Source: a virus
Direction: 5' to 3' (one strand)
DNA: 64,000 nucleotides
Virus record (IMG/VR): IMGVR_UViG_3300045971_000674
Coordinates: 45,230-109,229 of that record
A program made the position numbers and the translations under genes. Below the pieces are notes generated by a model. It ran no database searches and was not told where the DNA came from. It saw nothing but the letters and a program-made list of their open reading frames with translations. How positions within the stretch are numbered: the first letter of the stretch is position 1; the number at the start of each line of letters is the position of its first letter. Below are positions 5,579-56,199 of the stretch, piece after piece.

Positions 5579-5600
5579 GCTCTACTGAGCATCTCCTGAC

Positions 5601-5626
5601 AAGGGCAGCTTCGGCTGCCCTTTCTT
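5601..5626 (+). terminator. rho-independent terminator
   Basis: AAGGGCAGC-TTCG-GCTGCCCTT followed by TCTT, immediately after the fibre gene. Confidence 0.85.
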
Positions 5627-5689
5627 CTGCCTGGGCCTAGCACTCACCATAAATACCAGGATCCAACACCTAACCTCAAGGACACCTCC

Positions 5690-6289
5690 ATGAAGTTCTA
5701 CGGCGACGCCAATCTTCAACAGAACGAGCTCCAGAACGCTGTTCTCTCTACCCTCACGCAGTTTCCATCACCCCCAAAGCAAGGTCAGATCGCGTTTGTT
5801 CGCAGCGTTGTCTACATCTGCGTTACGGCTGGCGAGCTTCCTGTCTGGGTTCCGCTGACGAATGAAATCACGGCTTACACCCACAACCAAGAAGGCTTGT
5901 CTGCCAACTGGTCGATCAGCCACCCACTGAACACGATGTCGGTGAACGTGCAGGTTTATGACGGCACCAACAACGTGATCATTCCCGATTCGATCGTCAC
6001 CACTGGTCCAGGCACCGTGCTTGTGAACTTCTCGACGGCAACTGGTGGTCGTGCTGTCGTGATCACCGGTCAGTTCGACGGCAACCCAAAGCCAACATAC
6101 GCCTTCACGTACTACCAGAACCCAGCCTCCACAACTTGGACAATCACCCACAATCTTGGCTACAACCCAGTTGTGCGTGTGTTCATTGGCAATGACGAAG
6201 TTCAGCCGCTCACGACCAGCCACCCTTCGATCATGCAGACAGTTATCACATTCACCACAGCTCAGGCCGGCTACGCTCGCCTGATTTAA
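5690..6289 (+). CDS. fibre-associated protein with two W-x-I-x-H modules
   Basis: 199 aa with WSISHPLN and WTITHNLG modules. TAAATA at 5650-5655 and RBS AGGA. Confidence 0.65.
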   Translation: MKFYGDANLQQNELQNAVLSTLTQFPSPPKQGQIAFVRSVVYICVTAGELPVWVPLTNEITAYTHNQEGLSANWSISHPLNTMSVNVQVYDGTNNVIIPDSIVTTGPGTVLVNFSTATGGRAVVITGQFDGNPKPTYAFTYYQNPASTTWTITHNLGYNPVVRVFIGNDEVQPLTTSHPSIMQTVITFTTAQAGYARLI

Positions 6290-6298
6290 GGAGCTGTC

Positions 6299-6526
6299 AT
6301 GTCACTAACTCGCACTCTCGCAATGCTCTACACTCACACGCAGGACGTTCCTGCAACTGAGTGGGTGATCGTTCACAACCTCAACCTCTATCCAATCGTG
6401 GATTGCTACGTGACGGACAATGGTGTCAACCAGAAGATCCTTCCAAGTGCCATCACATTCATCAATCTCAACACCTGCATGGTGACCTTTACGGTTGCCA
6501 CGGCAGGACACGCAACGGTGGTGTAA
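6299..6526 (+). CDS. stand-alone W-x-I-x-H-N-L module protein
   Basis: 75 aa, WVIVHNLNLYPIVDCYV...VTFTVATAGHA. RBS AGGAG. Confidence 0.65.
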   Translation: MSLTRTLAMLYTHTQDVPATEWVIVHNLNLYPIVDCYVTDNGVNQKILPSAITFINLNTCMVTFTVATAGHATVV

Positions 6527-6527
6527 C

Positions 6528-6752
6528 ATGGCACGCTCAGTAGGTATTCCCGTTTTCCACCACACGCAAGATTCCTCGTCTATGACGTGGACCATTGTTC
6601 ACAATCTCGGTCACCGCCCAACCCATGATGTGTGCGTCATGAATGACGGCGTGCTCGAGAAGATCTATCCGCTGCGTGTGACCCACGTAGACGACAACAC
6701 CCTCATGCTGGAATTTTCGATTCCACGTACAGGATTCGCCCGCCTGTTTTAA
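6528..6752 (+). CDS. stand-alone W-x-I-x-H-N-L module protein
   Basis: 74 aa from ATG 6528, WTIVHNLGHRPTHDVCV...LEFSIPRTGFARL. Paralog of the upstream gene. Confidence 0.65.
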   Translation: MARSVGIPVFHHTQDSSSMTWTIVHNLGHRPTHDVCVMNDGVLEKIYPLRVTHVDDNTLMLEFSIPRTGFARLF

Positions 6753-6782
6753 TAGGGCGCATACGCATAGGAGCATACCAAG

Positions 6783-7196
6783 ATGGGATTTCTATCAGTC
6801 ATCGGAATCAAGGGCGTTGTGATCATCGCCCTTGTTCTTGGCCTTGGCGGTTGGGCAGGCTACAACCACTATCAGATCTCATCTGCTAAGGCGGAGCGCG
6901 ACACAGCAATCGCCGAACGCGATGAAGCAGGCATTGCACGTGACAAGGCTGTTGAAGCCAACAAGGTCACGCAGGCCACGATCGAGCAGTTGACCAAAGA
7001 GAAGGCCGACATTCAAGTGGCGCTCAACAACCTCGATGCCGATCGGAAGAAGAACCAGACGGTCATCAACAACCTGTCATCGGTCATTCGCTCGATGGCG
7101 GCCGACCCAGCCAACAAGGTGGCTCTGAGCCCGGTGTTGCAGCGGACGGTCGATGACATTCAGAAGCAGCGCGCTGCACGGGAGGCATTGCCATGA
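6783..7196 (+). CDS. inner-membrane spanin (Rz-like)
   Basis: 137 aa with an N-terminal TM helix and a long coiled coil. Overlaps a lipoprotein gene by 4 bp. Confidence 0.7.
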   Translation: MGFLSVIGIKGVVIIALVLGLGGWAGYNHYQISSAKAERDTAIAERDEAGIARDKAVEANKVTQATIEQLTKEKADIQVALNNLDADRKKNQTVINNLSSVIRSMAADPANKVALSPVLQRTVDDIQKQRAAREALP

Positions 7197-7522
7197 AGCG
7201 CATCATTCTAGCCCTTGCGGCCACTCTCGCTCTTGCTGGTTGCGATACCTTCGTCCGCAAGGAAGTTGTTGTTGAGACGCACTACGTTGTGCGCAAGGCG
7301 ACCGATCAACAGAAGGCTCTGCCTCCATACCCAGCACCGCTGAATGTGGCAACTGCCGATCAGCTGTCCCTTGCTGACTGGATTGCCCAGAGCGAGAAGC
7401 GCCAATACGATCTCGAATCAATCATCAAGCGGCTCGTGGAATACTACGAGCAAGCCCCAACCCCTGAAGAGAAGGCTGCTGCCCCGGCTGCACCCGCGTC
7501 GGCTGCCTCTGCCGCTAAATGA
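7193..7522 (+). CDS. outer-membrane lipoprotein spanin (Rz1-like)
   Basis: 109 aa, signal peptide with lipobox LAG-C, Pro-rich segment. ATGA overlap with the i-spanin candidate. Confidence 0.7.
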   Translation: MKRIILALAATLALAGCDTFVRKEVVVETHYVVRKATDQQKALPPYPAPLNVATADQLSLADWIAQSEKRQYDLESIIKRLVEYYEQAPTPEEKAAAPAAPASAASAAK

Positions 7523-9144
7523 GCTGCTGTCCTGAAGCACCACAGATCAACGTTGCAGATGTAGGCACTGACGAGCCATCTCAAGGTGCTGAGGTCGAGC
7601 GCATTCCTGGCGAGAGCGAGGACTGTTATGTCAAGCGTGCTGGCAATGTCAACTCCACTGGATCTGTTGGTGACAAGACCGAGGAAGTAGCAGACAAGAT
7701 TGCGCAGAACTCGGTGGTGCCAGACGGAACTGCAGCCATCAATCTGCAGTTCACGATGTCGAAGGGCTCTCAAGTCCCTGATCATTGGGTGTTCGAGCCT
7801 GCTTCTGTTGGCGGTGTGACGGGTACTTCGAGCGGACTATTCAGCGGAACATTCGACCCGAACGTCTTTGGCACGAAGCTCCAGATTCGGGTGAAGGCCA
7901 TGAAGGCTGACAACTCGGTCATCGACGATCGCACCTACAGCTTCTCGCCTACGATCTATGACAGCTCGAACTCGATCAAGCTACAGCACCCACTTCCTGG
8001 CTCCATCACCACCTCCAAGTTCGGTCCTCGGAAGCCTCCTGCAACTGGCGCAAGCTCGAACCACTTCGCCCTTGACTTTGCCTACGGTGGTGGGACCACA
8101 AAGGATGTCTGCTGCGCTGCTGATGGTGAAGTCACGCTTGCACGACCCGGTTCTGGCTATGGCAACTATGTGATGGTGAAGCACAAGGACGCTTCAGGCA
8201 AGCACCTCATCACCACCCTCTACGCCCACATGGAGACATTGTACGTCAAGGTCGGACAGAAGGTTTCTGCTGGTCAGACTCTCGGCAAGGAAGGCAACAC
8301 CGGCATCGGTTCGGGTGCTCACCTCCACTTCGAGGTTCGACTGCCTGACGACACGAAGGTAGATCCAACTCCATACCTGAATGGTGGGGTGCAGGTGGCT
8401 AACGGCGTTCGACCAAACAACACACCTGATGACAGCGGCACTTCACCTCCGCTGGATGGCGGCAAGGCCATCACGAAGGCTGAAGTAGATGCACGCCAGT
8501 CATGCGAAGCATTCGGCACATCCTATCCAGCAGGTGCTCCAGGATCTACTCCTCCACCAGAAAGTGGCGGCATTACCCCTCCGCCTGGAGCTAATGCCTT
8601 CGAGAAGACATGGTTCTACACCATGACACACGAAGTCAGTCCTCGTTGGGGTAGCGATGCATCATGGTCGCCGACAGATGCAGACGTGGCTGCTGGCAAG
8701 ATGGACACATCGAACCAGAAGCTGCACGTTGGCTACCTCGACCATCCTAAAGACCCAGGTGGTTTGACGAAGTTCGGCGTGGCACAGCGCTACAACCCGA
8801 ACGTCCAGATCTTTGACATGTCCTACGAGCAAGCACGCTCGACTGGCTACAACGTCTACTGGCTTGCCAAGCAGAATGACTGCTCGCAGATCACATCGGG
8901 CAAGATTGCCTGCATGGCTTTCGACATGAACTACGCCCTCGGCCCGGGCACTGCAAAGGCGTTGATGCAGAAGGCTGGAATTACCGGCAACGAGACAGGT
9001 GCTGCAGAGATTGCCGCTGTAGAGAAGCTAGGTGATGTCTACATCGCCTACTATCTGTCTCGCCCTGCCGACAAGGTTGCGGCGTTCGGTAAGGGCTGGA
9101 CCGCGCGGGTCAAGCGTGGTGTTGAGTTTGCGAAGACGGTCTGA
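7519..9144 (+). CDS. dual peptidoglycan hydrolase: M23 peptidase + GH108-type lysozyme
   Basis: M23 motifs HFALDF, YGNYVMVKH, TLYAHM, GAHLHFEVR. C-terminal GYLDHPKDPGGLTKFGVAQ is GH108-like. Confidence 0.8.
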   Translation: MSCCPEAPQINVADVGTDEPSQGAEVERIPGESEDCYVKRAGNVNSTGSVGDKTEEVADKIAQNSVVPDGTAAINLQFTMSKGSQVPDHWVFEPASVGGVTGTSSGLFSGTFDPNVFGTKLQIRVKAMKADNSVIDDRTYSFSPTIYDSSNSIKLQHPLPGSITTSKFGPRKPPATGASSNHFALDFAYGGGTTKDVCCAADGEVTLARPGSGYGNYVMVKHKDASGKHLITTLYAHMETLYVKVGQKVSAGQTLGKEGNTGIGSGAHLHFEVRLPDDTKVDPTPYLNGGVQVANGVRPNNTPDDSGTSPPLDGGKAITKAEVDARQSCEAFGTSYPAGAPGSTPPPESGGITPPPGANAFEKTWFYTMTHEVSPRWGSDASWSPTDADVAAGKMDTSNQKLHVGYLDHPKDPGGLTKFGVAQRYNPNVQIFDMSYEQARSTGYNVYWLAKQNDCSQITSGKIACMAFDMNYALGPGTAKALMQKAGITGNETGAAEIAAVEKLGDVYIAYYLSRPADKVAAFGKGWTARVKRGVEFAKTV

Positions 9145-33533: not shown

Positions 33534-33724
33534 CACTTTTCCTTGGCTGCGACGATGCTGAAGAGCGTGGTCGGATTGACCCACTTCTTCCATGTGCCAT
33601 CGTCTTGGTTGACAGGAGTGACTTCACACATCACAAGCTTCTTACCGCCTGGCATGGGCTTCTCGGCCATTCTACCAGTCTTCTTCACCTCGAATTCACC
33701 GAGGACGAATGTTTCTTCAGTCAT
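33533..33724 (-). CDS. hypothetical protein
   Basis: 63 aa, ATGA-coupled. Confidence 0.55.
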   Translation of the reverse strand: MTEETFVLGEFEVKKTGRMAEKPMPGGKKLVMCEVTPVNQDDGTWKKWVNPTTLFSIVAAKEK

Positions 33725-34269
33725 TTCTGGAGCGCCTTCACGCGATGGATATCGCATTTGATGTCATGTGCCTTGCAGAATCCTTCCCACAGAAGATGGA
33801 GATTTTCAGCGCCCTTGATGTTGGCTGAATGGATGCGAACTCGCCGAATTGCCGTGCAGTCCCACGTTTCATCGAGATGACCGTTGATGAGCCACCACAT
33901 GAACTTCGTGGAAACCGGTTGGTCTTGGCCGAGATCGTGGTCGTAGCTGATGTCGCATGGCAAACCATGCTGTTGAACCAAAGCTTGCGCTTCGTGGACA
34001 GACCGAGCAATGAGCACGGCTGTGGCACCCAGCACGTAGTTGGCATCTGCAGGCGCTCGCTCATCATCGAGGAACAACGCCCATTCTTTGCCGTTACTAG
34101 AGGACAGAATCAACCACTTTGGGTGGGCATAGATGTACATGCACCCATCGATGGTGTTGAAGTAGCAGTCGCCCTGTGCTGGATTTGGGGGCGGAGTCGT
34201 CGACGCTTGAAGCATGTTCATGCCCGCCGCCACGTGTGTCTGCCAGTTCATACCCGGATTGATCGTCAT
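33721..34269 (-). CDS. cyclic-phosphate-processing receiver-like domain protein
   Basis: LFLDDER, IARS..EA, ISYDHDLG and IHSANIKGA motifs. Extended -10 upstream. Confidence 0.7.
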   Translation of the reverse strand: MTINPGMNWQTHVAAGMNMLQASTTPPPNPAQGDCYFNTIDGCMYIYAHPKWLILSSSNGKEWALFLDDERAPADANYVLGATAVLIARSVHEAQALVQQHGLPCDISYDHDLGQDQPVSTKFMWWLINGHLDETWDCTAIRRVRIHSANIKGAENLHLLWEGFCKAHDIKCDIHRVKALQK

Positions 34270-34307
34270 GGTCTATTCTATCACAACGACCAACCTGCGG
34301 GGATCTG

Positions 34308-34931
34308 TTACAGTTGGATCCCGAGGCTCTCTGCCCCAGCCGTGCACAGCGCTTTGATGCTTTGAAGTACCGTGAGGGTCAACTCGGCATCAGAGAGGGC
34401 GTTGTGCTTGTCGCGGCGTTCACCGCAGAAGATCTCGAAGACGTCATTGGAGCGATACTTGCCGATCGCGACGAACGAAGTGCCTGACGTATCGATCACG
34501 ACGTGGTACAGATCAGGCATGACGCCGTGCTTCTCGAGCAGTTGGCGCATGGCTTCGATGTCGAAGTACGGGTTGTGACCGGCGAACATCACCTTGCCAG
34601 TACCGAAGTGGGTGAGGATGAATTCAGCAAGGGTGGCTGCAGCTTCTTCATCGTCCAGACCTTCAGCTTCGAGCTGCTCGCGTGACAGGCCGTGCACCTT
34701 CTCAGCGCTCTCAGACCACTCGTACTTGGTGCCGTCGAACTTGACGGTGAAGTAGAGCTTGGCAATGGGTTGGAAGGTCAGGTTGTCAGCAACGATGGCA
34801 CCGAACGACACGGCTTGGTACTGCTTGAAGGTGTCTTCATAGCTGCCGAAGCTGGAACCTGAGGTCTCGGTGTCGAGGATCAGGATGTTCTTGCCAGGGC
34901 CGTGGCGCGAATAGGTTGGTGGCTTAGTCAA
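34308..34931 (-). CDS. DEDDh 3'-5' exonuclease (DnaQ-like)
   Basis: ILDTETSG, AGHNPYFDIEAM, HNALSDAELT. Confidence 0.9.
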   Translation of the reverse strand: MTKPPTYSRHGPGKNILILDTETSGSSFGSYEDTFKQYQAVSFGAIVADNLTFQPIAKLYFTVKFDGTKYEWSESAEKVHGLSREQLEAEGLDDEEAAATLAEFILTHFGTGKVMFAGHNPYFDIEAMRQLLEKHGVMPDLYHVVIDTSGTSFVAIGKYRSNDVFEIFCGERRDKHNALSDAELTLTVLQSIKALCTAGAESLGIQL

Positions 34932-35202
34932 GGGATTGGTCCTCGATGGTTGGGAATGGCCAAGCCGGCTTCGGTTCTTTGACCTTGGTCGGCTTCGGTG
35001 GGTTGAGCTTCACAGCCTTGGGTTTGTTGACGTGCTTGACAATGCTGAGCACCGGAATGTTCAGTGGTCCATCCATCTCTGCCGAGATCATGAAGGCCGT
35101 CTTGCCATCATCAGCGAACAGCACCACGTGGTTGATGCAGCTTGCATCCACCCGACCAATGGTGAAACCCTTGAGCTTCTTGAAACCGCGATCTTTGGTC
35201 AT
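34924..35202 (-). CDS. hypothetical protein
   Basis: 92 aa, coupled. Confidence 0.55.
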   Translation of the reverse strand: MTKDRGFKKLKGFTIGRVDASCINHVVLFADDGKTAFMISAEMDGPLNIPVLSIVKHVNKPKAVKLNPPKPTKVKEPKPAWPFPTIEDQSLD

Positions 35203-35819
35203 AGTGTGAGGAGGAAGTCGGAAACTTGTTTGACCCGTTCCGGGATACCCTTCTCGGTGATGGTCAATTTGCGGGTGGTCAGGAACCTGGAGCTCTCGAG
35301 GAAGCGTTCCACATCCTCGTAGACGGCATCGACTGTGGCCCGTTCAGCACGATTGGGGTCGTCTTGCCAAGGCACGCTGTCCATGTACGGAAGCAGCATG
35401 ACGGCATCGTAGCACTTTTCCTGCGCCCCATTGCAGAGACTCAGGTAGCGCGTCAGCCAAGGGCTGGCTTCGCGAACATCCCACTTGTGCTCATCGAGCA
35501 GCCGCCATGTCCACTGGAGAGTGTAGGCGGCGATGTCAGCGAAGGTGCGTTCGGTGACGATGAGGTAGGAGACGCCTTGGCCTTCTTGTTCCTTGAGATA
35601 GAGGTCACGCTCGTACTTCTGGCGGTATACCTCCATCTGGAATTTCGTCATGGTGTCTGGGTGTTCCATGACCCGATTGAGACTGTCCCAGCCAAGTTGG
35701 GCTTGCACTGCACGCGAAACCCGGAAGCTGTCGACAGACCAACCTTGACTCATGAGACCCGTCAGGATGGAGCTTTTGCCGGCGCCTTGTGCACCGGAGA
35801 GACCGACGACCTTAGCCAT
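35199..35819 (-). CDS. P-loop nucleotide kinase-like protein
   Basis: VVGLSGAQGAGKSS Walker A, IVTERTFAD, and a DDPNRA lid. Confidence 0.75.
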   Translation of the reverse strand: MAKVVGLSGAQGAGKSSILTGLMSQGWSVDSFRVSRAVQAQLGWDSLNRVMEHPDTMTKFQMEVYRQKYERDLYLKEQEGQGVSYLIVTERTFADIAAYTLQWTWRLLDEHKWDVREASPWLTRYLSLCNGAQEKCYDAVMLLPYMDSVPWQDDPNRAERATVDAVYEDVERFLESSRFLTTRKLTITEKGIPERVKQVSDFLLTL

Positions 35820-36168
35820 AGATCAGCTTGCTCAGAGGCTTCATGTCGCGCTCGAGCTCCTTTGCTGTGAGATCCTTGGCATGGAAGCCAAGATCGTCTT
35901 GATCGAATTGCTTGAAGGTGAAGGTCAGAACCTGTTTGGGCTCCTGAGTCAGGAACATCATGGGCGTCGTGGACCAAGCACCGTCGTGGCGCTCGTTCAA
36001 CTGAAAGCTCGTGATCCCTCGATTGCACAAGAAGGCAGTGACGAAGTCAATGAGGGTTTGACCGCGCTTCAGGTTGGTGATCCCCTTACTGGTGAAGGTC
36101 TCCAACCTGCCGCCTTCAACTCCGGTGATGGAGGATCCGACAACTTTGATGAACTGGCGTTGTTTCAT
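35812..36168 (-). CDS. hypothetical protein
   Basis: 118 aa from ATG 36168. Extended -10 TG-T-TACAAT upstream. Confidence 0.55.
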   Translation of the reverse strand: MKQRQFIKVVGSSITGVEGGRLETFTSKGITNLKRGQTLIDFVTAFLCNRGITSFQLNERHDGAWSTTPMMFLTQEPKQVLTFTFKQFDQDDLGFHAKDLTAKELERDMKPLSKLIYG

Positions 36169-36283
36169 GGAGGGCAGTGTAGTGTAACTGTTCCATTGTA
36201 ACAACTTCTGGAAACAATTCCCGGGACCTTCAGGTTAGCATACCGCGTATAAATAGGTCGTAAAAATCCCCAGGATTCCAGTC

Positions 36284-36754
36284 ATGCAGAAGATTTCCTT
36301 CAAGCAGTTTCTCGAGTACCAACACGTCGCTGCAAACGACCTTCCTTGCCCAGAGACCCTGGACGAAGGACTGCTGGACTTCATCAAGGCAAAGCTTCAG
36401 AAGTCTGCCAAGCTCACTGACAGTGAACTTGCAAAGCTCTTCAAGGTTGCCAAGGAAGGCGATGCCGCTGCCAAGCGCACGCTCAAGAACTACGCAGCTC
36501 AGCTCGAAAAGAAGGGCGAACAGACTGGCGCCATCAAGAAGATCTTGGCCTCACTGCAAGATCAAGAAGATCACAAGGAAAACGAGTTCCAGCGCTCACG
36601 TGCCGAGGCAGAACAGGCAGAACAAGGTTCCTCACGCCGCAGCCGAGCCGAAGCAGGTTCAGTCAGCAAGCGTGCCGAACCAACTTGGAATCCAAAGACC
36701 AAGGAATGGGAACGTGGAGCCAACGCCTGGGCCCACGTAGGCAAGCACAGCTAA
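36284..36754 (+). CDS. hypothetical late protein
   Basis: 156 aa, TATAAATA at 36248-36255. N-terminus ISFKQFLE, L-x-E motifs. Confidence 0.65.
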   Translation: MQKISFKQFLEYQHVAANDLPCPETLDEGLLDFIKAKLQKSAKLTDSELAKLFKVAKEGDAAAKRTLKNYAAQLEKKGEQTGAIKKILASLQDQEDHKENEFQRSRAEAEQAEQGSSRRSRAEAGSVSKRAEPTWNPKTKEWERGANAWAHVGKHS

Positions 36755-36945
36755 GGATATCGGGCCAGAATTCGCCTGGCTTGGTAGCAAATCCAAACCA
36801 ATCGCACGTTGGTGATCGCCAACCCGATGTAGAGTGGTAGCAACATGATGGCTGCTTTCAGGTATGCCATGAAGCTGGGCTTGGATTTACGAGATGTCTT
36901 CATGACAAATTGATTGTACACTGTTGGTGGGTTTCGTGTTGACAA
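36751..36945 (-). CDS. possible small membrane protein
   Basis: 64 aa with a hydrophobic stretch. Start uncertain. Confidence 0.3.
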   Translation of the reverse strand: MSTRNPPTVYNQFVMKTSRKSKPSFMAYLKAAIMLLPLYIGLAITNVRLVWICYQARRILARYP

Positions 36946-36982
36946 TAGTGTAACGATCCTCCCCGTAGGGAGGATGTAACCA

Positions 36983-37834
36983 CTACCACTTGAGCAATTC
37001 AGCCCTCGTCAGGATCTGAGTCATCAGCGGCTTGGCATCACCGAAGAGGATGTCCACGGCTTCCTCTTCTTTCGACAGCCACACGTCCATCTCCTTGATC
37101 TCGGTGCGCGTGATTTCCTTGGTCGCCCTGAACTGCTCCCAGTACGCCTCAGGCACGCGCTCGAAGTCTGCCGTCTCGATCGGTCTGGTCACCGTGATCC
37201 GCTTCACGAAGGTGCCGCGCTTGAAGAATGGCGGGTAGTCGTTGAAGTTGATGCCCTTCTCCTTGAACATCTTCTCCTGCATCTCGGGCCCATGCAGCCC
37301 CTGCAGCGACTTGTGCGAGAACATCGACTGAGCAGCCATGGAGATGGCGTTCTTGGTTGCGTCCTGCTGCCGCCACAGGAAGGCGTGGTAGGCTTCCTTG
37401 ATGTTCGGCACCACGAAGGAACGTGCATCGAAGATCGGCAGCTTGTCAGCCTTCTCAGGAATGAGGGTGGGAAGCAGACGGTTGAAGACTGCTGTGGCAT
37501 AGGCTGCGAGCAGGCTCTCGAGCTTCTGGAACCGACCCGAGAATGGGTACTCCGTGGTCTCATGCGGAGCGGAGTACCAAGCGAGGGTGATCTCGTCGGA
37601 CTGCGTGTAGCCCACCTTGGCTTGGAAGTGATCGACCAGTGCGGTCGTGACCTGCACCATGAGCTTCGAAAGGCGCTCATCGTAAGGCCGCTTCAGGCCC
37701 TTGCAGAAGGTGTGGAAGCTCTTGCCGTCCAGGCGGACGATCAGTGGCTGGCCCTTGAATGCGACACGGGATGTCGTGGGCTGCTCGTACGACTTCATCC
37801 GGTCGCCAAGCGTAGTTTTGTCTGTAGCTGACAT
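36983..37834 (-). CDS. thg1: tRNA(His) guanylyltransferase Thg1-like protein (3'-5' polymerase family)
   Basis: VRLDGKSFH, GYTQSDEI, FSGRFQKL, FDARSF, WRQQDATKNAI, KRGTF. Confidence 0.9.
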   Translation of the reverse strand: MSATDKTTLGDRMKSYEQPTTSRVAFKGQPLIVRLDGKSFHTFCKGLKRPYDERLSKLMVQVTTALVDHFQAKVGYTQSDEITLAWYSAPHETTEYPFSGRFQKLESLLAAYATAVFNRLLPTLIPEKADKLPIFDARSFVVPNIKEAYHAFLWRQQDATKNAISMAAQSMFSHKSLQGLHGPEMQEKMFKEKGINFNDYPPFFKRGTFVKRITVTRPIETADFERVPEAYWEQFRATKEITRTEIKEMDVWLSKEEEAVDILFGDAKPLMTQILTRAELLKW

Positions 37835-37887
37835 GGTCTCGTTCTCCGAGGTAGTGGAAAGAACCCTCTCGTGAAGGGTGTAAGTGT

Positions 37888-37917
37888 ATTGTAACCCGTT
37901 GAACCCGAAGGTGTCAA
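37888..37917 (-). promoter_or_regulatory. sigma70-type promoter for the Thg1-like gene
   Basis: TTGACA-N18-TACAAT on the minus strand. Confidence 0.75.
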
Positions 37918-37923
37918 CAAAAA

Positions 37924-38349
37924 TCAGGTTAGAACGCGGTTCGCTCTGTTCAGAACGTAGAAGTACTTGGTGCTGTCGTCCAAGCTGAAGGGGTCGAGGT
38001 CGATCTGGGCTTGCATCAGGAAACAGACGAGGGCCGACATGTTGGCCCAGTACTCATTCAGCACATCAAGTTCCATCTCATCCCGAGACAGTGGACTTGG
38101 AATCCCCTTCTTCCAGGCTTCTAGCACCGAAGCCATCTTGGTTGGCAGGTCACCTAGCTGGCCGATGCAGAAGTTGAGCTCTGCAGTTCGCATCTCATCT
38201 GCTCTCGACTGCATCGGGTATCGCTCAAGGTAGAAGACGGTGTGCTCAAACAGGAGATCAACCTGTCGTAACAACCCGATGTAAGCAATCTCTGCCTGAA
38301 CTATGAGCTCAGATCGAAGCTGGTGGTTTGTGTGCATGCGGTCTCCCAT
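37924..38349 (-). CDS. hypothetical protein
   Basis: 141 aa, GGAGG RBS region and TAAATA at 38356-38361. Confidence 0.5.
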   Translation of the reverse strand: MGDRMHTNHQLRSELIVQAEIAYIGLLRQVDLLFEHTVFYLERYPMQSRADEMRTAELNFCIGQLGDLPTKMASVLEAWKKGIPSPLSRDEMELDVLNEYWANMSALVCFLMQAQIDLDPFSLDDSTKYFYVLNRANRVLT

Positions 38350-38386
38350 GTGTCATATTTACGCCCTCCATACCCATCCAACCCGA

Positions 38387-38392
38387 TAAATA
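38387..38392 (+). promoter_or_regulatory. late-type promoter TAAATA driving the AAA/peptidase/vWA operon
   Basis: Same motif as upstream of structural genes; 30 nt before ATG 38422. Confidence 0.65.
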
Positions 38393-38421
38393 GGTGGTAC
38401 AATCCCACCCAGGAAGTTAGA

Positions 38422-38685
38422 ATGAAACTTCATCACTTCATCACGGCGCAGCCTTCCGAAGCAGCTAACCGTGTGCGAGATTTGGGCAAGGCGCTTTCGC
38501 CTGCCAAGTTGCCAGTTGTCTCTCTGCCAGAGCCAGTCGTTGAAACTCAGGAAGATCCTGTTGAAGACACCGGTCCAGTTGCTGAACCACATGAGAAGGA
38601 AGCACATCGCCGCCATGCTCATGAACAAGCCAAGGGCAGCAAAGCTTGCCATCACGTGCATGTCATGTACGACAACTACAGCTAA
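38422..38685 (+). CDS. small protein with His-rich C-terminus
   Basis: 87 aa, HEKEAHRRHAHEQ...CHHVHV. First gene after TAAATA. Confidence 0.55.
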   Translation: MKLHHFITAQPSEAANRVRDLGKALSPAKLPVVSLPEPVVETQEDPVEDTGPVAEPHEKEAHRRHAHEQAKGSKACHHVHVMYDNYS

Positions 38686-38694
38686 GAGAGCAAC

Positions 38695-41244
38695 ATGAGA
38701 AAACTCGAAGTAGCTGCCCTTGACGTCAGCGGCAAAATCAAGACCCTCGAGCATATCTTTGACGATATGCACACACGGTCTCGTGGTCTCGGCCAATCTG
38801 GTTACCTTCTCGGTGGCGACACCGGTGTGGGCAAGACTTCATTCGTTCGTGACCTAGCACAGCTGCTCGGCCTCGAGCTGGTGATGATCGAAACACCACA
38901 CATCGTTGAAGAACACATCATCGACATCCCATTCATCGTGGTCAAGCCAAATGGCGAAGCCTCGACGAAGCGTGAGGTTGTCGATACCAAGTCGTCTCGC
39001 GCTGAGTTCGACATCAAGTTCGCCAAGTCGCACCTGTTCACCACTCTCGTGGCCTCGAAGCAAGCGCCTGATGCAGCTCTTCTGGCCCAAGTGCAGAAGC
39101 GTCAAGACCTCTTCATGATCTGGGAAAAGCTTGGTGGCACCGCTACCACAATCCCTGACGAGATCAAGCAACTGCGCGCCAAGTTCAAGACGATCTTGTT
39201 CCTGGACGAATACTTCCGCCAGACTTCGAACTCTATCCGCAACATGCTGCGTTCGATCCTGAACGGTCGCATCGGTCAGAACACCATCCCTGCTGACATT
39301 TACGTTCTGTTTGCTTCGAACCTGGTTGACAGCGGCGTTGGCGACATCCTCGAGAACGAGGACTTCGTCATGATGAACTTTGACACGCCGAACTTGGACG
39401 AGTGGTTTGCGTACCTCATCACGAAGTACAAGAACAACCCGAAGATCAAGCTCGACGAGGAACTGCTGCACGACTTCTACAAACTGATGAAGAAGAATGC
39501 AGGATCGTTGTCCACTGACGACATGGCTGCGGACGTTCGCGTCTCGCCACGCCGTTGGGAACAGCTCGTGGTGTACCTGTCAACTGCCCTTCCGGTCAAG
39601 GACCAGCGCGATGCTGACTTGCTGCTGAAGAACGTTGCTGTCAACTTCCAGAACTACGTCGATGGCAAGCAGGCCGAAATCGCCAAGGACGTTCTCAAGA
39701 CCGTCAAGGACCTGATCAAGGAACGCCAGGAAATCACCGGTGACGAGAAGAACGTCAAGGACCACGACTGGCGCGAAACCCTCGAGCATCAGATCAAGAC
39801 ACGCATGAAGGCAGGCGAGGCACGCAAGTACGTGCCTGTCATCGCTGGCCCTCCTGGTGCTGGCAAGACCAAGCACATCAAGGACATCGCTACTGACCTG
39901 AACCTGGTGCCGATCGTCATCGACGTTCAGAATGCTTCTCCTGAAGAAGCCATCGGCGTTCCACTCGCCAAGGAAGGCAAGAACGACAGCATCGAGGTGG
40001 CATTCTCCAAGCCGCCAATGAACGATGACATCCAGAACCAGATGAAGGAAGGCGAGAAGCACCTCAAGGAACGTCTCATCAAGTTCCACGGTGCAGATGC
40101 AGGTGGCAAGATGTTCGCTGCTTGGCAGAAGTCCGACACGAAGTACCTGATCTTCTTCGACGAATTGAACCGCACGAACGTCAAGGTGTTCAACGCCATG
40201 CGTAAGGTGCTGCTCGAGAAGGAGTTCAACGACGAGTACAAGCTGCCACCCGAATCGATCCTCGTGGCCGCCATCAACCCAACGGGTAAGGGCGTCATCG
40301 AACTGACCAAGCACGTTCGCGACGTGTTCGACGTCATTCCGGTTGGTTTGGATTGGAACCAGTTCCAGAAGCACCTCGGCACGATCAACCTCGGTGTAGA
40401 CCCAGTCGTTGCTGACTTCTCCCGCAATGTCATCACTGCATTTGCAGATCGCTTCAAGCTCAAGGGCGGTGCCCCAGGCAACATCGATCCACACTTCTAC
40501 CTGAGCATCGGCCCAACGCCGCTGTACATCTCAGGCCGTGAGTACAACAAGATGCTGGTGCTTGTGGCCCAGGGTGCTGAACGCGCCTACCAACGGGAAG
40601 TGGCTCACCTCGGTGAACCAGGTCACGAAGTGGACAAGAGTGAAGCCAAGGTCCGTGGTGCAATCGCCGACAAACTGATCCATGCCCTCGACCACATTAT
40701 CAAGAACAAGCACGGCGTTGACGCGCCCGAGTTCAATGGTGACCTGCGCGAATGGGCTCTGACCACTGACGGCTTCTCACTGGGCGACGCCTTCAAGAAG
40801 AAGGTCAAGACCATCAAGAACCTGTCTGCTCTGCTCGACCGCTCGTTCGCTGACCAAAGCGAAGACCTGTTCAACGAGCAGGAATTCATCAACTACGTTA
40901 CGTCTGTCGACGCCACGGTCTTCAAGGAAGACCTGACCGAGTTCATGACCAACGCTGTGATGAAGGATGCCAAGAACGCCTTCGCCAAGTTCGGCAAGGA
41001 GAAGACCCTGGCAGGCACAAAGGCCAAGGTTACTGCCAAGGAAGTGTCCAAGCTGGAGTTCATCACACGCGAAGTGCTGCACGCCCTCAAGCTGCATGAC
41101 ATCTCCAACAAGATGATGCAGATGGTGAAGGTCGCTGTTCGTGACACCCTCGAGAAGGTTGCTGACGCTGAGTCAGACACCATCATGGACGTCATGAACT
41201 TCAGCCGCGAGATGAACGCCTACATCAAGAAACTATCAGTGTGA
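38695..41244 (+). CDS. tandem (double) AAA+ ATPase, MoxR/dynein-related clade
   Basis: Two modules: GDTGVGKT...FLDEYFR...FASN and GPPGAGKT...FFDELNR...AAINP. Confidence 0.85.
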   Translation: MRKLEVAALDVSGKIKTLEHIFDDMHTRSRGLGQSGYLLGGDTGVGKTSFVRDLAQLLGLELVMIETPHIVEEHIIDIPFIVVKPNGEASTKREVVDTKSSRAEFDIKFAKSHLFTTLVASKQAPDAALLAQVQKRQDLFMIWEKLGGTATTIPDEIKQLRAKFKTILFLDEYFRQTSNSIRNMLRSILNGRIGQNTIPADIYVLFASNLVDSGVGDILENEDFVMMNFDTPNLDEWFAYLITKYKNNPKIKLDEELLHDFYKLMKKNAGSLSTDDMAADVRVSPRRWEQLVVYLSTALPVKDQRDADLLLKNVAVNFQNYVDGKQAEIAKDVLKTVKDLIKERQEITGDEKNVKDHDWRETLEHQIKTRMKAGEARKYVPVIAGPPGAGKTKHIKDIATDLNLVPIVIDVQNASPEEAIGVPLAKEGKNDSIEVAFSKPPMNDDIQNQMKEGEKHLKERLIKFHGADAGGKMFAAWQKSDTKYLIFFDELNRTNVKVFNAMRKVLLEKEFNDEYKLPPESILVAAINPTGKGVIELTKHVRDVFDVIPVGLDWNQFQKHLGTINLGVDPVVADFSRNVITAFADRFKLKGGAPGNIDPHFYLSIGPTPLYISGREYNKMLVLVAQGAERAYQREVAHLGEPGHEVDKSEAKVRGAIADKLIHALDHIIKNKHGVDAPEFNGDLREWALTTDGFSLGDAFKKKVKTIKNLSALLDRSFADQSEDLFNEQEFINYVTSVDATVFKEDLTEFMTNAVMKDAKNAFAKFGKEKTLAGTKAKVTAKEVSKLEFITREVLHALKLHDISNKMMQMVKVAVRDTLEKVADAESDTIMDVMNFSREMNAYIKKLSV

Positions 41245-42440
41245 AGCCAAACGAAAAACGTCTGCGCCAGCTCTTCGCTGGTACACATCGTCTGACCGAA
41301 GACAACGTCAAGCGGGCTATCGGCAGCGGGGTGCTTCCCACCTCGTCACTGTCTGACCCGCACATTCGTAAGATCATCGATCACATCCACAAGACCTCGA
41401 AGATCTCCGTGGCTGACATCGAGGATGAGATCAGCAGCGAAGTTGCACGCATTGCCAAGCAACATGCCAAGTCGCCATTGCTCTTTGGTTCGATGATGGC
41501 CAATGCTGTTGAGGCCGCGCTCTTCGACATGTTCTCTCCGAAGGCAGCCCGCACGAAGCCTGAGCACAACCTTCGCAAGCGCAAGAACAATGCCGGCGAA
41601 GACGAGATCGTGCCAAAGATCCAGGCGGTTCCCAAGTCAACCGTGCCAAAGTGGGATCCGGTCATCTTCTCGGCACTTGTTCGTCGCATCAAGGCTGAGA
41701 ACCAGTCCATCTTCCCGCTGCGTAACTTCTACAACAAGAAGCCGATCATCTCTCCGCGCATCATCTATGTGCCGAGCAAGCATGAGGTAGATCAAAAGCA
41801 GTTCGGCGACATCGACACCGCTGCTGCCACGCCGAAGGGTGAGTTCATCTTCAATCTGCACTTCATGCAGCAGTGCATGGACTTCTCCCACACCAAGGGC
41901 ATCAAGCCGAAGGGCAAGAAGTACGTGAGCAATGGTGGTGAGTTCCCCGATGAATACTGCATGATCGAGTTCCTGATCCTGCACGAGTTCTTCCACTACA
42001 CCCATGCCGACTTCCACTACCACAAGGTGCTGAAGGACGACGAGGGCAAGAAGGCTGTTGGCAAGATCATCAACTGGGTCGGCGACTTCCGCACCAACTA
42101 CGACTTGATCAAGGCTGGTCATGAAGGCATTCCGATGGGTCTGTACAACGAGCTGGTCAACTACGACCGCCAGTACACCTACGAAGAGATGTACAACCTC
42201 GTCAAGAACGAGTTGAAGAAGCTGAAAGAGAAGAAGGTGCCGAAGGTCGGCGACCTCGTCAAGGATCTCAAAGGTAAGGGCTACCACATCGTCACTGCTG
42301 TCGACATGGTCAAGGGCGAGGTTGATGCTCGTCCAGCCACGCAGGCCGAGATCGATGCTGTGTTGAAGCCAGCACCCGCCCCACAGATCGTTCAGGTAAA
42401 GGGTGGGCCAGCTCCCGCCAGTTCAGCAGGTAATCCATGA
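41241..42440 (+). CDS. HEXXH metallopeptidase-like protein (DUF2201_N-like)
   Basis: IDTAAAT, ILHEFFH, NWVGDFRTN. Small SH3-like segment (PKVGDLV...) near the C-terminus. Confidence 0.75.
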   Translation: MKPNEKRLRQLFAGTHRLTEDNVKRAIGSGVLPTSSLSDPHIRKIIDHIHKTSKISVADIEDEISSEVARIAKQHAKSPLLFGSMMANAVEAALFDMFSPKAARTKPEHNLRKRKNNAGEDEIVPKIQAVPKSTVPKWDPVIFSALVRRIKAENQSIFPLRNFYNKKPIISPRIIYVPSKHEVDQKQFGDIDTAAATPKGEFIFNLHFMQQCMDFSHTKGIKPKGKKYVSNGGEFPDEYCMIEFLILHEFFHYTHADFHYHKVLKDDEGKKAVGKIINWVGDFRTNYDLIKAGHEGIPMGLYNELVNYDRQYTYEEMYNLVKNELKKLKEKKVPKVGDLVKDLKGKGYHIVTAVDMVKGEVDARPATQAEIDAVLKPAPAPQIVQVKGGPAPASSAGNP

Positions 42441-43585
42441 GCAAGTTCACACTAGACGAGATTGAAGTTGTCGAAGGCCCTTCGAAGAAGAAAAAGAAGG
42501 GTCAGGGCGGTGGTGGCGGTCAAGGCGAACCACAACCCGGTGGCGGTGGTGAACCCGGCGACGAAGAGGGCGACGGTTCTGGTGGTGAGGGTGAAGGCGA
42601 AGGTGAAGAGGGCGACGAAGAGGGTGAAGGCGCTGGCGGTGAAGCTGGTGAAGAACTCGACCGTCGTTCTGGCGATGACCACAGCACCCACCATGGCGAA
42701 GATGAGGATGATCCTGATGGTGAAACACCATCCAAGGAAGACCTAGAGAAGCATAGCAAGAAGGTCTCCAAGGCCACTGGCGAGAAGGACGAAGGAGCCA
42801 AGGCCGGCAAGGCTGGTGACGATCGTCCTGGCGAGAAGAGCGGCCGAGGCGGTCCTGGTTCCCACACCAATCTCCAACCGCATGAGGTCGATTGGGCTTC
42901 CATTCGTCCACGCTACAACTGGAAGGATCTGTTGGCTCGTCTGATCCACGCATCCGACTCTACCGAAATCACCTACCAGAAGGTGCACCGTCGTGCTGTC
43001 ACTTCGATGCACACGGCTGCTCAGACCGGCGCTGGCGTAGTTCGCCCAGGCGAGAAGGACTTCCCAGCCAACCTGGTGAAGCTCTGCATTGTCATCGACT
43101 CATCTGGCTCCATGTCGAGCGCCATCAAGACAGTGTTCGCGAACATCTCCAAGCTGTTCACTGAGAACTCGGCTGGCATTGCAAAGGAGTTCGCAATCGT
43201 CGAATTCTCAGGCAACTTCCACCCGTATGCGTGCACGCTGAATGGCAAGGCAGGTACTGCTCGAGCCATCACGGGTGTAGAGGGCATGAAGGGCGCGGGT
43301 GGCGGGGAGCGTGTCGATCTGTCTGTGATCCTGAGTCGCCATGAGGGCGGTGGTACCAACTTCGACGAGCCGCTGGTGACTTGCCTGAAGGGGTTCGTCA
43401 AGGAGAAGTACAACGTGCTGGTCCTGACAGACCACGACATCACATCAGGTGGCAATCGTGAGAGCTTCTTGGACCTCTACGCATCCAACCACCAGCAGGT
43501 CTTCCTGATCCTCGACAGCAAGGAGACCTTCGTGAGTGTGATCAAGAGTCTGAAGCAGGCATCTGCCAACATCAGCCACATGTGA
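42437..43585 (+). CDS. vWA-domain protein (DUF2201-like) with acidic Gly/Glu linker
   Basis: MIDAS VIDSSGSMS, GGGTNF, VLTD. G/E-rich N-terminal tract. Confidence 0.8.
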   Translation: MSKFTLDEIEVVEGPSKKKKKGQGGGGGQGEPQPGGGGEPGDEEGDGSGGEGEGEGEEGDEEGEGAGGEAGEELDRRSGDDHSTHHGEDEDDPDGETPSKEDLEKHSKKVSKATGEKDEGAKAGKAGDDRPGEKSGRGGPGSHTNLQPHEVDWASIRPRYNWKDLLARLIHASDSTEITYQKVHRRAVTSMHTAAQTGAGVVRPGEKDFPANLVKLCIVIDSSGSMSSAIKTVFANISKLFTENSAGIAKEFAIVEFSGNFHPYACTLNGKAGTARAITGVEGMKGAGGGERVDLSVILSRHEGGGTNFDEPLVTCLKGFVKEKYNVLVLTDHDITSGGNRESFLDLYASNHQQVFLILDSKETFVSVIKSLKQASANISHM

Positions 43586-43604
43586 TCCTACACCAGACAA
43601 AACA

Positions 43605-43624
43605 AAAGGGCCTCCGGGCCCTTT
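43605..43624. terminator. bidirectional rho-independent terminator
   Basis: AAAGGGCC-TCCG-GGCCCTTT between convergent units. Confidence 0.8.
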
Positions 43625-54867: not shown

Positions 54868-55069
54868 GGCATTTCTGCTTCAGCAGGTCGTCGAGTGGTG
54901 AGGTGATGCCAGGCTGCATGGCCTTTTCGGCAGCAGCGCTAGCAATGGCCAGTTCGATCAGCTCTGTCAACTTCATGCTGTATTTGGCAGCACCAGGACG
55001 ACGATGGCGTTCTTCCATTAGAAGATGCGTGAGCATCTTCGCCACGACATCCCGGTAGTCGACGTTCAT
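54848..55069 (-). CDS. hypothetical protein
   Basis: 73 aa, ATGA-coupled to the RNA ligase. Confidence 0.5.
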   Translation of the reverse strand: MNVDYRDVVAKMLTHLLMEERHRRPGAAKYSMKLTELIELAIASAAAEKAMQPGITSPLDDLLKQKCHEPDAS

Positions 55070-56199
55070 ACGTTGATCTCCACCACCTCCAGCGACCAGT
55101 CGTTGTCCAGATGGTTCTTGGCGTACCAGTCCATCCAGTCGACTTCACCACCACGGAAGGTGCGCATGATCTGACCGAAGAGCTCATGGCCCTTGTGGCG
55201 CTCCGCCATCTCCTTCGGCGTGCACTTGTCAAGGTGGCCATCGGCCGCCATCAACTCGACATACGCCTTCGGTTCGGCGATCGACTCCTTGATCTCGCGC
55301 TCCACCTTCAGGATCGGCTCGATCGAACGGCCCGTCATCGCGAATGCGCCCTTCAGGTCATCCGACTGGTCTGCAGCGACCGTGCGGGCGATGTCACGCC
55401 ACCGGGTGAAAGTCACTGCATGGTGCAGATCCATGTACCACTTCGTCTTCACCTTGACCATGTCGCCGTCTTCGAACTGCACGACCCAGCCTTCGAGACC
55501 TTCCATCGTTTCCTGCATCGTCTTCAGGATGTCCCACGACACGAGGTTCGCAGGCAATCCCGGTGGGCAGAACTGCATCTTCAGGTTCTTCACCACTGGG
55601 AAGGGCGGGTTCAGGAACGTGATCTCGCGCTCCGTCAGGTAACGACCCGACACGTTCTCACGGATGTGGAGCAACGTGAGCTCGTCCTTGTCGTACTTGA
55701 GCACGATCGGGAACTTCGGCGACGTCACCTCGAAAGTTGGCGTCAGGTCAGCACGAAGCAGGTTGCAGATCCAATGATGACGACCATCGAGCGAACCGAG
55801 ATCATCGGCAAGCGCCGCTTCCGGCGAACCGAAGGTCTTCTTGGTCTTCATCTTCCAGTTTGCGCCGCTCGGCAGCATCACGGGCGTGACCATCGAGCCG
55901 TCACGCTTCTCCATGATCCGGTCGACCTTGCCCCACGAGATGTTGTGCGGTTGCACCGACTCGTGTTCGCCGACGTTGAAGAACTTGTGAAGACAACGTC
56001 CTGCGATCTTGCCGTCCGGATGGAAGGTGATGCCGCGGCATTCGACCGCGAACTGGAGGTCGGTGCCGGCGAAGGTGTCTTCATCCTGCACCATGTACGA
56101 CACGACCGTGTGACCGGTCGATTCGACCTTGGCACGAATCTGTTGGTTGTGCTGGATGTGCGGGAGGAGGTCGTCGATGTGGGCGATCTGCGGGAACAT
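55066..56199 (-). CDS. rnl1: RNA ligase 1 (T4 Rnl1-like)
   Basis: ECRGITF, LHKFFNVGE, motif I EKRDGSM, PTFEVTSP, EGWVV and motif V VKVKTKWY. Confidence 0.9.
   Translation of the reverse strand: MFPQIAHIDDLLPHIQHNQQIRAKVESTGHTVVSYMVQDEDTFAGTDLQFAVECRGITFHPDGKIAGRCLHKFFNVGEHESVQPHNISWGKVDRIMEKRDGSMVTPVMLPSGANWKMKTKKTFGSPEAALADDLGSLDGRHHWICNLLRADLTPTFEVTSPKFPIVLKYDKDELTLLHIRENVSGRYLTEREITFLNPPFPVVKNLKMQFCPPGLPANLVSWDILKTMQETMEGLEGWVVQFEDGDMVKVKTKWYMDLHHAVTFTRWRDIARTVAADQSDDLKGAFAMTGRSIEPILKVEREIKESIAEPKAYVELMAADGHLDKCTPKEMAERHKGHELFGQIMRTFRGGEVDWMDWYAKNHLDNDWSLEVVEINV

Follow-up and report, generated by a model that had tools for sequence, protein, structure and literature searches.

Positions 38386 to 43624 of a 64,000-nucleotide stretch of viral DNA (hereafter the window; bases 45230-109229 of the 131-kb IMG/VR viral contig IMGVR_UViG_3300045971_000674) carry a four-gene cassette that encodes an AAA ATPase with two MoxR-type modules in a single chain, a zincin-vWA partner protein divided over two genes, and a small His-rich protein in first position. 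As the most likely role of this cassette, to which we assign a probability of about 0.5, we propose late, virion-associated, ATP-driven remodelling and proteolytic processing of virion components, with the motor kept in the particle. Two observations point to this role: the promoter motif of the cassette is common to structural genes, and the ATPase was detected in the virions of two relatives. An ATPase oligomer, binding of the partner, protease activity and the substrate are the parts of this reading that we infer. The cassette comprises the following features.

38386..38392, plus strand: ATAAATA(G) promoter-like motif, 30 nucleotides (nt) 5' of the small open reading frame (ORF), matching 7 of the 8 positions of the T4 late promoter consensus, TATAAATA

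38422..38685, plus strand: P0004, small His-rich protein (87 residues, 9 His), conserved first gene of the cassette

38695..41244, plus strand: double AAA ATPase (849 residues; ORF and AAA_5 match)

38695..39729, plus strand: ATPase module 1 (residues 1-345), AAA_5/MoxR-type core and lid (motifs, model pLDDT 91, NorQ superposition)

39730..40614, plus strand: ATPase module 2 (residues 346-640), the module closest to N4 gp24 (AAA_5 match, motifs, hhalign to N4 gp24)

40615..41244, plus strand: C-terminal helical/beta-hairpin domain of the ATPase (residues 641-849; predicted secondary structure, low column conservation)

41241..42440, plus strand: P0002 (399 residues), putative N-terminal half of the DUF2201-type partner, with a GTG start and a GTGA overlap with the ATPase gene

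42437..43585, plus strand: P0003 (382 residues), putative C-terminal half of the DUF2201-type partner, with an ATGA overlap with the P0002 gene

43605..43624, unstranded: palindromic GC-rich hairpin (AAAGGGCC-TCCG-GGCCCTTT) that ends the operon (sequence and terminator scan)

The four ORFs, both 4-bp start/stop overlaps, the TAAATA-type motif and the closing hairpin were all found as given in a preliminary description of this DNA, as was the orientation of the operon against its neighbours, the flanking genes lying on the minus strand. The four genes are real and no chance ORFs, because the ATPase has 182 cluster representatives (E<=1e-30) and the peptidase half 181 homologues. Owing to its short T-run on the plus strand, the hairpin was classed as terminator-like on the minus strand; it is probably a bidirectional terminator.

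Conservation of the ATPase motifs was read from a MAFFT alignment of 116 homologues and a curated alignment of 73 rows, and supports the earlier claim of two complete MoxR-type modules. Pfam AAA_5 matched residues 383-545 with 41.5 bits (cut-off 22), and generic AAA matches were obtained on both halves. Module 1 carries Walker A (G41-T48), Walker B (D171-E172), sensor-1 (N209) and sensor-2 (S284-P285-R286); module 2 carries G385-T392, D489-E490, N528 and S613-G614-R615 at the corresponding places, together with H540-x-[KR]542-D543. These Walker and sensor motifs are invariant or near-invariant in both modules, sensor-2 being of the SPR type across homologues and taking the form S613-[PG]-R615 in module 2. 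The GxxGxGKT, hhhhDE and DE(x)xR...N..R..L segments typical of MoxR/AAA_5 are also kept in both. In module 2, H540 and D543 are invariant on either side of [KR]542. At the canonical arginine-finger position of module 1 the alignment contains no conserved Arg (N221 here, N or H among homologues), and the finger of this module may be missing.

Homology between the two modules extends over the full length of each, lids and unusual inserts included (hhalign 99.5%, E 7e-23), so that the ATPase is an internal tandem duplication, as had been suggested, and a fusion of two unrelated AAA families was rejected. Residues 9-266 of N4 gp24 aligned to residues 353-626 of the ATPase (hhalign 96.6%, E 6.6e-10), and tblastn with module 2 gave only marginal matches in N4-like phages. 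Sequence comparison thereby indicates that the duplication took place independently of dynein and midasin, inside the N4 gp24-like lineage. Some homologues, of 1160-1594 residues, contain LAGLIDADG/Hom_end inteins at Walker A of either module or of both; inteins at the P-loops of both modules are the usual signature of indispensable catalytic sites and argue that both sites are conserved and important.

The AlphaFold2 model of the ATPase (pLDDT 91.4, pTM 0.79) found its best matches in the PDB in two consecutive modules of the dynein motor or of Rea1/midasin (Foldseek TMq ~0.4). Residues 9-700 superposed on two consecutive dynein modules with VIA Z ~15 over ~500 residues at a root-mean-square deviation (rmsd) of ~5 A, and on Rea1 with Z 13.8. 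Residues 9-338, i.e. module 1, superposed on NorQ (9qh8_A) with Z 12.3 over 238/254 residues (rmsd 3.9 A). Because these lateral pairs fit the model far better than stacked double rings of the p97/ClpA type, which reached a TMq of only 0.17 and were rejected, the two AAA modules are predicted to pack side by side as ring neighbours in a dynein/Rea1-like manner. Rea1/midasin and dynein, the best whole-protein structural matches, resemble the ATPase in their concatenated AAA_5-type modules placed as neighbours in a planar ring, but they are eukaryotic and without a zincin, and midasin holds its MIDAS domain in the same polypeptide. With two modules per chain the ATPase differs both from the six-module chains of dynein and midasin and from single-module MoxR chains.

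Some relatives depart from this architecture. In the loci L016 and L041 (9631-10167), the partner gene is directly followed by a separate ORF of 178 residues that is similar to the C-terminal domain of the ATPase (profile positions 712-824, E 1e-9) and looks like a duplicated or detached copy of it. On the 306-kb contig of L063 the ATPase is contained in two ORFs of 539 and 676 residues (4611-6230 and 6503-8533) that are ~270 nt apart, an arrangement that could reflect an intron, the insertion of a mobile element, or fission between the modules. Intein-bearing ATPases are exemplified by the loci L061/L065 (4983-8627) and L059 (3837-7547) and by the proteins P0145, P0155 and P0188 (both modules in P0188).

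By alignment, P0002 and P0003 are two halves of one DUF2201-type, N4 gp25-like zincin-vWA protein, broken in its acidic linker. P0002 contains the sequence HEFFH at residues 248-252 (nt 41982-41996) in a zincin-like domain. H248, E249 and H252 are invariant in 62 homologues, and so in the alignment are D257, N278, D282 and N286, the latter three on a conserved helix. Among its 181 homologues the nearest have 356-402 residues, and most have ~600 residues and match PF13203 (DUF2201_N), some of them also a VWA model. P0002 by itself gave no Pfam match at E<=1; the fused orthologues P0034 and RsoM2USA_85 scored 30.8, 34.0 and 35.9 bits against PF13203 (cut-off 23.2), and N4 gp25 scored 293 and 158 bits against DUF2201_N and DUF2201. 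Direct comparison of P0002 with gp25 reached an hhalign probability of only 15.6%, around the HEXXH, this segment aligning to gp25 residues 72-118. The model of P0002 (pLDDT 88) matched mostly zincins, with low scores (selecase Z 5.6, SPRTN 5.2, BlaR1, ArdC, M48, minigluzincins); a Foldseek search of the PDB returned nothing at E<=0.001, and one of AlphaFold clusters only weak rows named 'putative metallopeptidase domain' (E 1.6e-2).

P0003 consists of a Lys patch, a Gly/Glu/Asp-rich linker (residues ~15-140), the last segment of DUF2201_N (residues ~147-215) and a vWA domain, in this order; a D/E-rich segment followed by a MIDAS domain is also found in midasin. The MIDAS site is formed by D221-S-S223-G-S225 (nt 43097-43111), T307 and D332/D334, and D221, S223, S225, T307 and D332/D334 are invariant in 34 sequences. 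Against VWA models of Pfam, PF09967 included, nothing scored above the cut-off (VWA_4, VWA_2 and VWA at 14.8-17.6 bits), and matches to I-domains in the PDB were weak (E>=0.0056). P0003 aligned to residues 307-610 of the fused RsoM2USA_85 (37% identity, E 8e-53), in agreement with the proposal of a split adaptor. The profile of its family aligned to N4 gp25 residues 198-299 (hhalign 85.6%, E 5.5e-6), which reaches only the first third of the gp25 vWA domain. Since this alignment runs from the end of the peptidase model through the MIDAS, the break lies within the inserted linker, and the final peptidase segment is located in the vWA half. This location argues that P0002 and P0003 most likely reassemble. 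A complex prediction for P0002 and residues 130-382 of P0003, based on custom alignments, gave a score of 0.16 (mark 0.32) and no verdict. Peptidase and vWA protein had been described as stand-alone: the HEXXH, the MIDAS and the split stand, but the two are not independent domains, as P0003 brings with it the end of the DUF2201_N region of gp25.

The small first ORF looks, from its conservation, like a further genuine component of the cassette. Of 42 related loci, ~36 have a small ORF directly before the ATPase gene, and the syntenic small ORFs can be aligned (MKLH.F ... HKI.NYD). Their middle part is variable, being His/Cys-rich in the window and forming a DxDxDG-like acidic loop in the related locus L003. 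Their C-terminal helix is conserved in the form ...NP.L[YW].[KR]I.N[WY][DE], ending in an aromatic and then an acidic residue. P0004 had no match in Pfam, PHROG, PADLOC or NCBIfam; the protein may be a plug, a regulator or a ligand of the MIDAS. All four proteins gave nothing meaningful in PADLOC and NCBIfam, only noise at the P-loop level, and the cassette was not assigned to any defence or counter-defence family. PHROG searches returned 'ATPase' families and a weak match to PHROG 249, 'porphyrin biosynthesis' (CobS-like); a match of P0003 to an HNH family was spurious and due to low complexity.

The source contig has a CheckV completeness of 36%, which corresponds to a jumbo phage with an implied genome of roughly 350 kb. 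For its DNA polymerase B, the closest relative is the enzyme of Ralstonia phage RsoM2USA (41% identity), followed by those of Xanthomonas phage XacN1 and Rak2-like phages. RsoM2USA is the sole cultured member found of the jumbo-phage clade with the cassette: tblastn with P0001 and P0002 against 50,697 phage records detected the cassette in RsoM2USA alone, and XacN1, a proposed genus-mate, had no PF13203 match. As in the window, ORF87, ORF86 and ORF85 of RsoM2USA (MG752970, annotated 'hypothetical') encode a small protein, an 840-residue double AAA protein and a DUF2201-type partner, with a 4-bp overlap and an upstream TAAATA. ORF86 is the orthologue of the window ATPase (39% identity over 99%). 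RsoM2USA differs from the window in that its partner is one fused protein of 610 residues, its GC content is 41% (window, 55%) and the other neighbouring genes are not the same.

A single-module ATPase next to a fused peptidase-vWA protein is the usual form, as the preliminary description held. It is represented by N4 gp24/gp25, which are core genes of N4-like phages, and by Rak2-like jumbo phages, in which phAPEC6 gp265c adjoins the N4 gp25-like gp264c (MK817115, 200065-202889; locus L087) and for which a pair of Atu_ph07 was cited by Iyer et al. (2021). These pairs share with the window a MoxR/AAA_5 ATPase adjoining a DUF2201_N zincin and vWA protein, but the ATPase has a single AAA module (350-440 residues), the fused partner is compact (380-480 residues) and without the long acidic linker, and BLAST-level similarity to the window proteins is nil or marginal. 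The pair of single-module MoxR ATPase and metallopeptidase-vWA protein has been described in group 2.2 jumbo phages and was proposed to act in virion assembly and proteolytic processing, by analogy with the tail chaperones of Acidianus two-tailed virus (ATV) (Iyer et al., PMC7824862). The phage pair as such is thus already in the literature (PMC4193335, PMC7824862), and the earlier suggestion of an undescribed system does not hold for this kind of system. In the literature covered, which is incomplete and leaves absence unproven, we found no description of a two-module tandem-AAA MoxR protein in phages and, with the same incomplete coverage, no functional report among those mentioning DUF2201. 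Nor did that literature yield an earlier account of a tandem-duplicated motor with predicted lateral packing of the dynein/Rea1 type, of a partner that has a long acidic linker and repeatedly undergoes fission, of the conserved first small gene, or of the late-type promoter ahead of the cassette.

Two further MoxR-vWA systems are informative for comparison. NorQ/NorD, of the class that includes CbbQ/CbbO and RavA/ViaA, resembles the window proteins in its module fold, its MIDAS vWA partner and a functionally important linker (PMC13036017); it differs in being a cellular homohexamer of single modules that lacks a peptidase and inserts metal into a defined enzyme. In NorQ/NorD structures the MoxR ring takes a finger of the vWA protein into its pore and remodels the linker of the partner, and motors of the MoxR class are remodellers that act via vWA partners, not threading unfoldases (PMC13036017). 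The earlier suggestions of an unfoldase-protease and of a machine that destroys host defence proteins were found to be unsupported or too strong. The ATV pair p618 (MoxR) and p892 (vWA) is, like the window cassette, a viral MoxR-vWA pair, and is tied to virion morphogenesis (PMC7824862), but this archaeal pair has one module, lacks a peptidase, and is likened here by description, not by sequence.

Late expression of the operon, as claimed earlier, is well supported by inference from its T4-late-like motif. The window contains 11 copies of ATAAATA where 0.57 would be expected, and the whole 131-kb contig contains 21, almost all of which precede a gene start in the proper orientation by 28-65 nt. 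Among the genes that follow a copy are those for the tail sheath, a structural/decoration-like protein of 1509 residues, a PKD-domain virion protein and a giant ORF of 2985 residues; that the motif is common to the cassette and structural genes supports late expression. Upstream of the ATPase gene, TAAATA was found in 37 of 43 related loci, mostly 220-310 nt before the start and just 5' of the small ORF, a placement that holds even in GC-rich genomes. The ATAAATA sites of the window lie at 2481, 5649, 17816, 20020, 20394, 24111, 33452, 36249, 38386, 51987 and 53419. Promoters of the ATAAATA[GC] class also precede genes for a GIY-YIG homing endonuclease and a cytidyltransferase.

The link to the virion that had been suggested earlier receives support from outside the window, as the ATPase was detected in virions of both RsoM2USA and phAPEC6. 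In RsoM2USA, ORF86 (96.44 kDa, 62335-64857) was among ~10 Coomassie-stained bands of purified virions separated by SDS polyacrylamide gel electrophoresis and analysed by liquid chromatography-tandem mass spectrometry, its domains not being recognised by the authors (PMC8504454). In phAPEC6, the 'MoxR ATPase' gp265c (49.5 kDa) is in the list of virion proteins detected by mass spectrometry, with 6 peptides (PMC7247149). The presence of the ATPase in the virions of two relatives, combined with a promoter motif common to structural genes, makes remodelling and processing of the virion the most likely role of the cassette.

In the mechanism that we propose, each ATPase chain would occupy two adjacent places in a planar AAA+ ring, and a closed ring of six modules would consist of three chains. 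The zincin half and the vWA half would reassemble into one partner, and the vWA half would dock the ring, the target or both through its MIDAS site, by analogy with NorQ/NorD, Rea1 and ATV p618/p892. Remodelling of the bound protein or of the partner's linker would be driven by ATP hydrolysis and followed by cleavage by the zincin. This would take place late in infection on virion components, and the motor would stay in the particle.

Several points weigh against this proposal. Both virion lists contain non-structural proteins, namely a putative transposase in RsoM2USA (PMC8504454) and the thymidylate synthase gp259c in phAPEC6 (PMC7247149), so that carry-over is possible. The partner proteins are reported in neither list, gp264c of phAPEC6 included (PMC8504454, PMC7247149), and for these two reasons we take the virion evidence as suggestive and no more. 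For members with a double module, the experimental evidence consists of one gel band. The homologous pair of N4 is expressed as middle genes, not late (PMC4193335). The cassette is located among replication and RNA-repair genes, outside the structural block, and the fold matches of the zincin half are weak (Z<=5.6; nothing by Foldseek at E<=0.001). As module 1 is without a conserved finger Arg, one class of ATP site may turn over slowly or have a regulatory role.

The detection of the ATPase in virions of two jumbo phages, and a late-type motif that fits packaging, would also be expected of an effector that is packaged, perhaps with its partner, ejected with the DNA, and remodels or degrades host proteins in takeover or counter-defence. 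Acidic low-complexity segments are common in ejected or internal proteins, and that of the partner resembles them; the cassette is moreover phage-only and widely conserved. We nevertheless consider such an effector unlikely: ejection is without evidence, the partners are unreported in virions, no likeness to a known anti-defence protein and no PADLOC match was found, and a 96-kDa protein, or a ring of three chains, would have to cross the tail unfolded. The same data, moreover, fit a morphogenetic factor that remains in the particle.

An explanation by a classical MoxR-vWA maturase appears quite improbable. Such a system would act in the cytoplasm to activate a phage or host enzyme or to insert metal into it, as NorQ/NorD, CbbQ/CbbO and CobS/CobT do, and its detection in virions would be carry-over of a late protein made in large amounts, in line with the other non-structural proteins in the virion lists. 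NorQ is indeed the best single-module structural match, the weak PHROG match is to a CobS-like family, the neighbours are metabolic and replication genes, and both the His/Cys-rich small protein of the window and the acidic loop of its L003 counterpart are styles of metal binding. However, the invariant HEXXH zincin has no counterpart in metal-insertion systems, and no candidate for a client enzyme is conserved beside the cassette. The late-type promoter is common to structural genes, and the amount of ORF86 in virions suffices for a band visible with Coomassie.

A more far-reaching version of the ring model may be put forward as a tentative speculation that is equally improbable. Three two-module chains would form a planar ring of six positions that represents an independent, phage-born step on the route from MoxR to midasin and dynein. 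The ring would work with a MIDAS partner bearing a D/E-rich linker, a zincin, and a small capping protein with the conserved aromatic-acidic C-terminus. Its place would be inside the capsid, as a packaged machine, and its targets would be proteins found in the particle or in the next host cell.

The distribution of the double ATPase was determined by a full HMMER scan of 1.84 billion representatives, which yielded 305 relatives; the 182 with E<=1e-30 nearly all have 830-1000 residues and match over their full length. The double ATPase occurs in ~57 IMG/VR loci, on contigs of up to 360 kb with a GC content of 25 to 60%. Among prokaryotes, represented by one genome each of 185,579 species, there were two matches, both on phage-like contigs of metagenome-assembled genomes (MAGs); these contigs are probably phage DNA binned into MAGs, and the cassette is essentially phage-only. 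The two matches are L082 (JAKQFZ010000996.1) and L083 (CAZFPB010000002.1, 330 kb), from an Omnitrophota MAG and a Pseudobdellovibrionaceae MAG; with its 330 kb, the contig of L083 is as long as the genomes of these jumbo phages.

ORF profile searches placed the partner directly downstream of the double ATPase in nearly every locus that extends far enough. It is fused in 29 and split in 8 of the non-redundant loci, and on the ATPase tree these states change at least four times, each change being a gain or a reversal of the split. The split is thus no special feature of this DNA but one of several in different lineages, most relatives being fused. L003 and L004, which are independent contigs with 60-67% identity, share with the window both the division into two genes and the 4-bp stop/start overlap, and this argues that the split is real and recurrent and no assembly error. 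A true gene that is fused, and appears split through an assembly or sequencing frameshift, is very improbable: the break does lie in a Gly/Glu-rich, repeat-like stretch prone to indel errors and the partner is fused in most relatives, but, besides L003 and L004, each half has its own conserved end and start, and splits in the same region recur in L044, L045, L049 and L062, some of them with a spacer.

Few phage modules without a tested function are as widespread as MoxR-vWA-peptidase pairs, which are core in N4-like phages and common in jumbo phages. RsoM2USA offers a cultured handle on them, with a motor abundant enough in virions for detection on gels. Because of the natural split, the protease and adaptor halves can be handled separately in genetic and biochemical work. 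The ring positions have diverged, one apparently being without an arginine finger, so that point mutations can be used to tell their roles apart. For the evolution of AAA+ proteins, the ATPase provides a natural two-module concatemer of the module type that is thought ancestral to dynein and midasin.

The flanking genes on the minus strand encode Thg1, an RNase T-like exonuclease, a cREC receiver-like protein, DNA polymerase B, DnaB, PhoH and an Rnl1-type ligase. Genes of an RNA-repair style surround the cassette on this strand (33721-38349 and 55066-56199); they encode the cREC receiver-like domain, the RNase T-like exonuclease, an AAA_28 kinase-like protein and Thg1 and, further on, the Rnl1-type RNA ligase and PhoH. 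The Thg1 gene is preceded by a near-consensus sigma-70-like promoter, TTGACA-N18-TACAAT.

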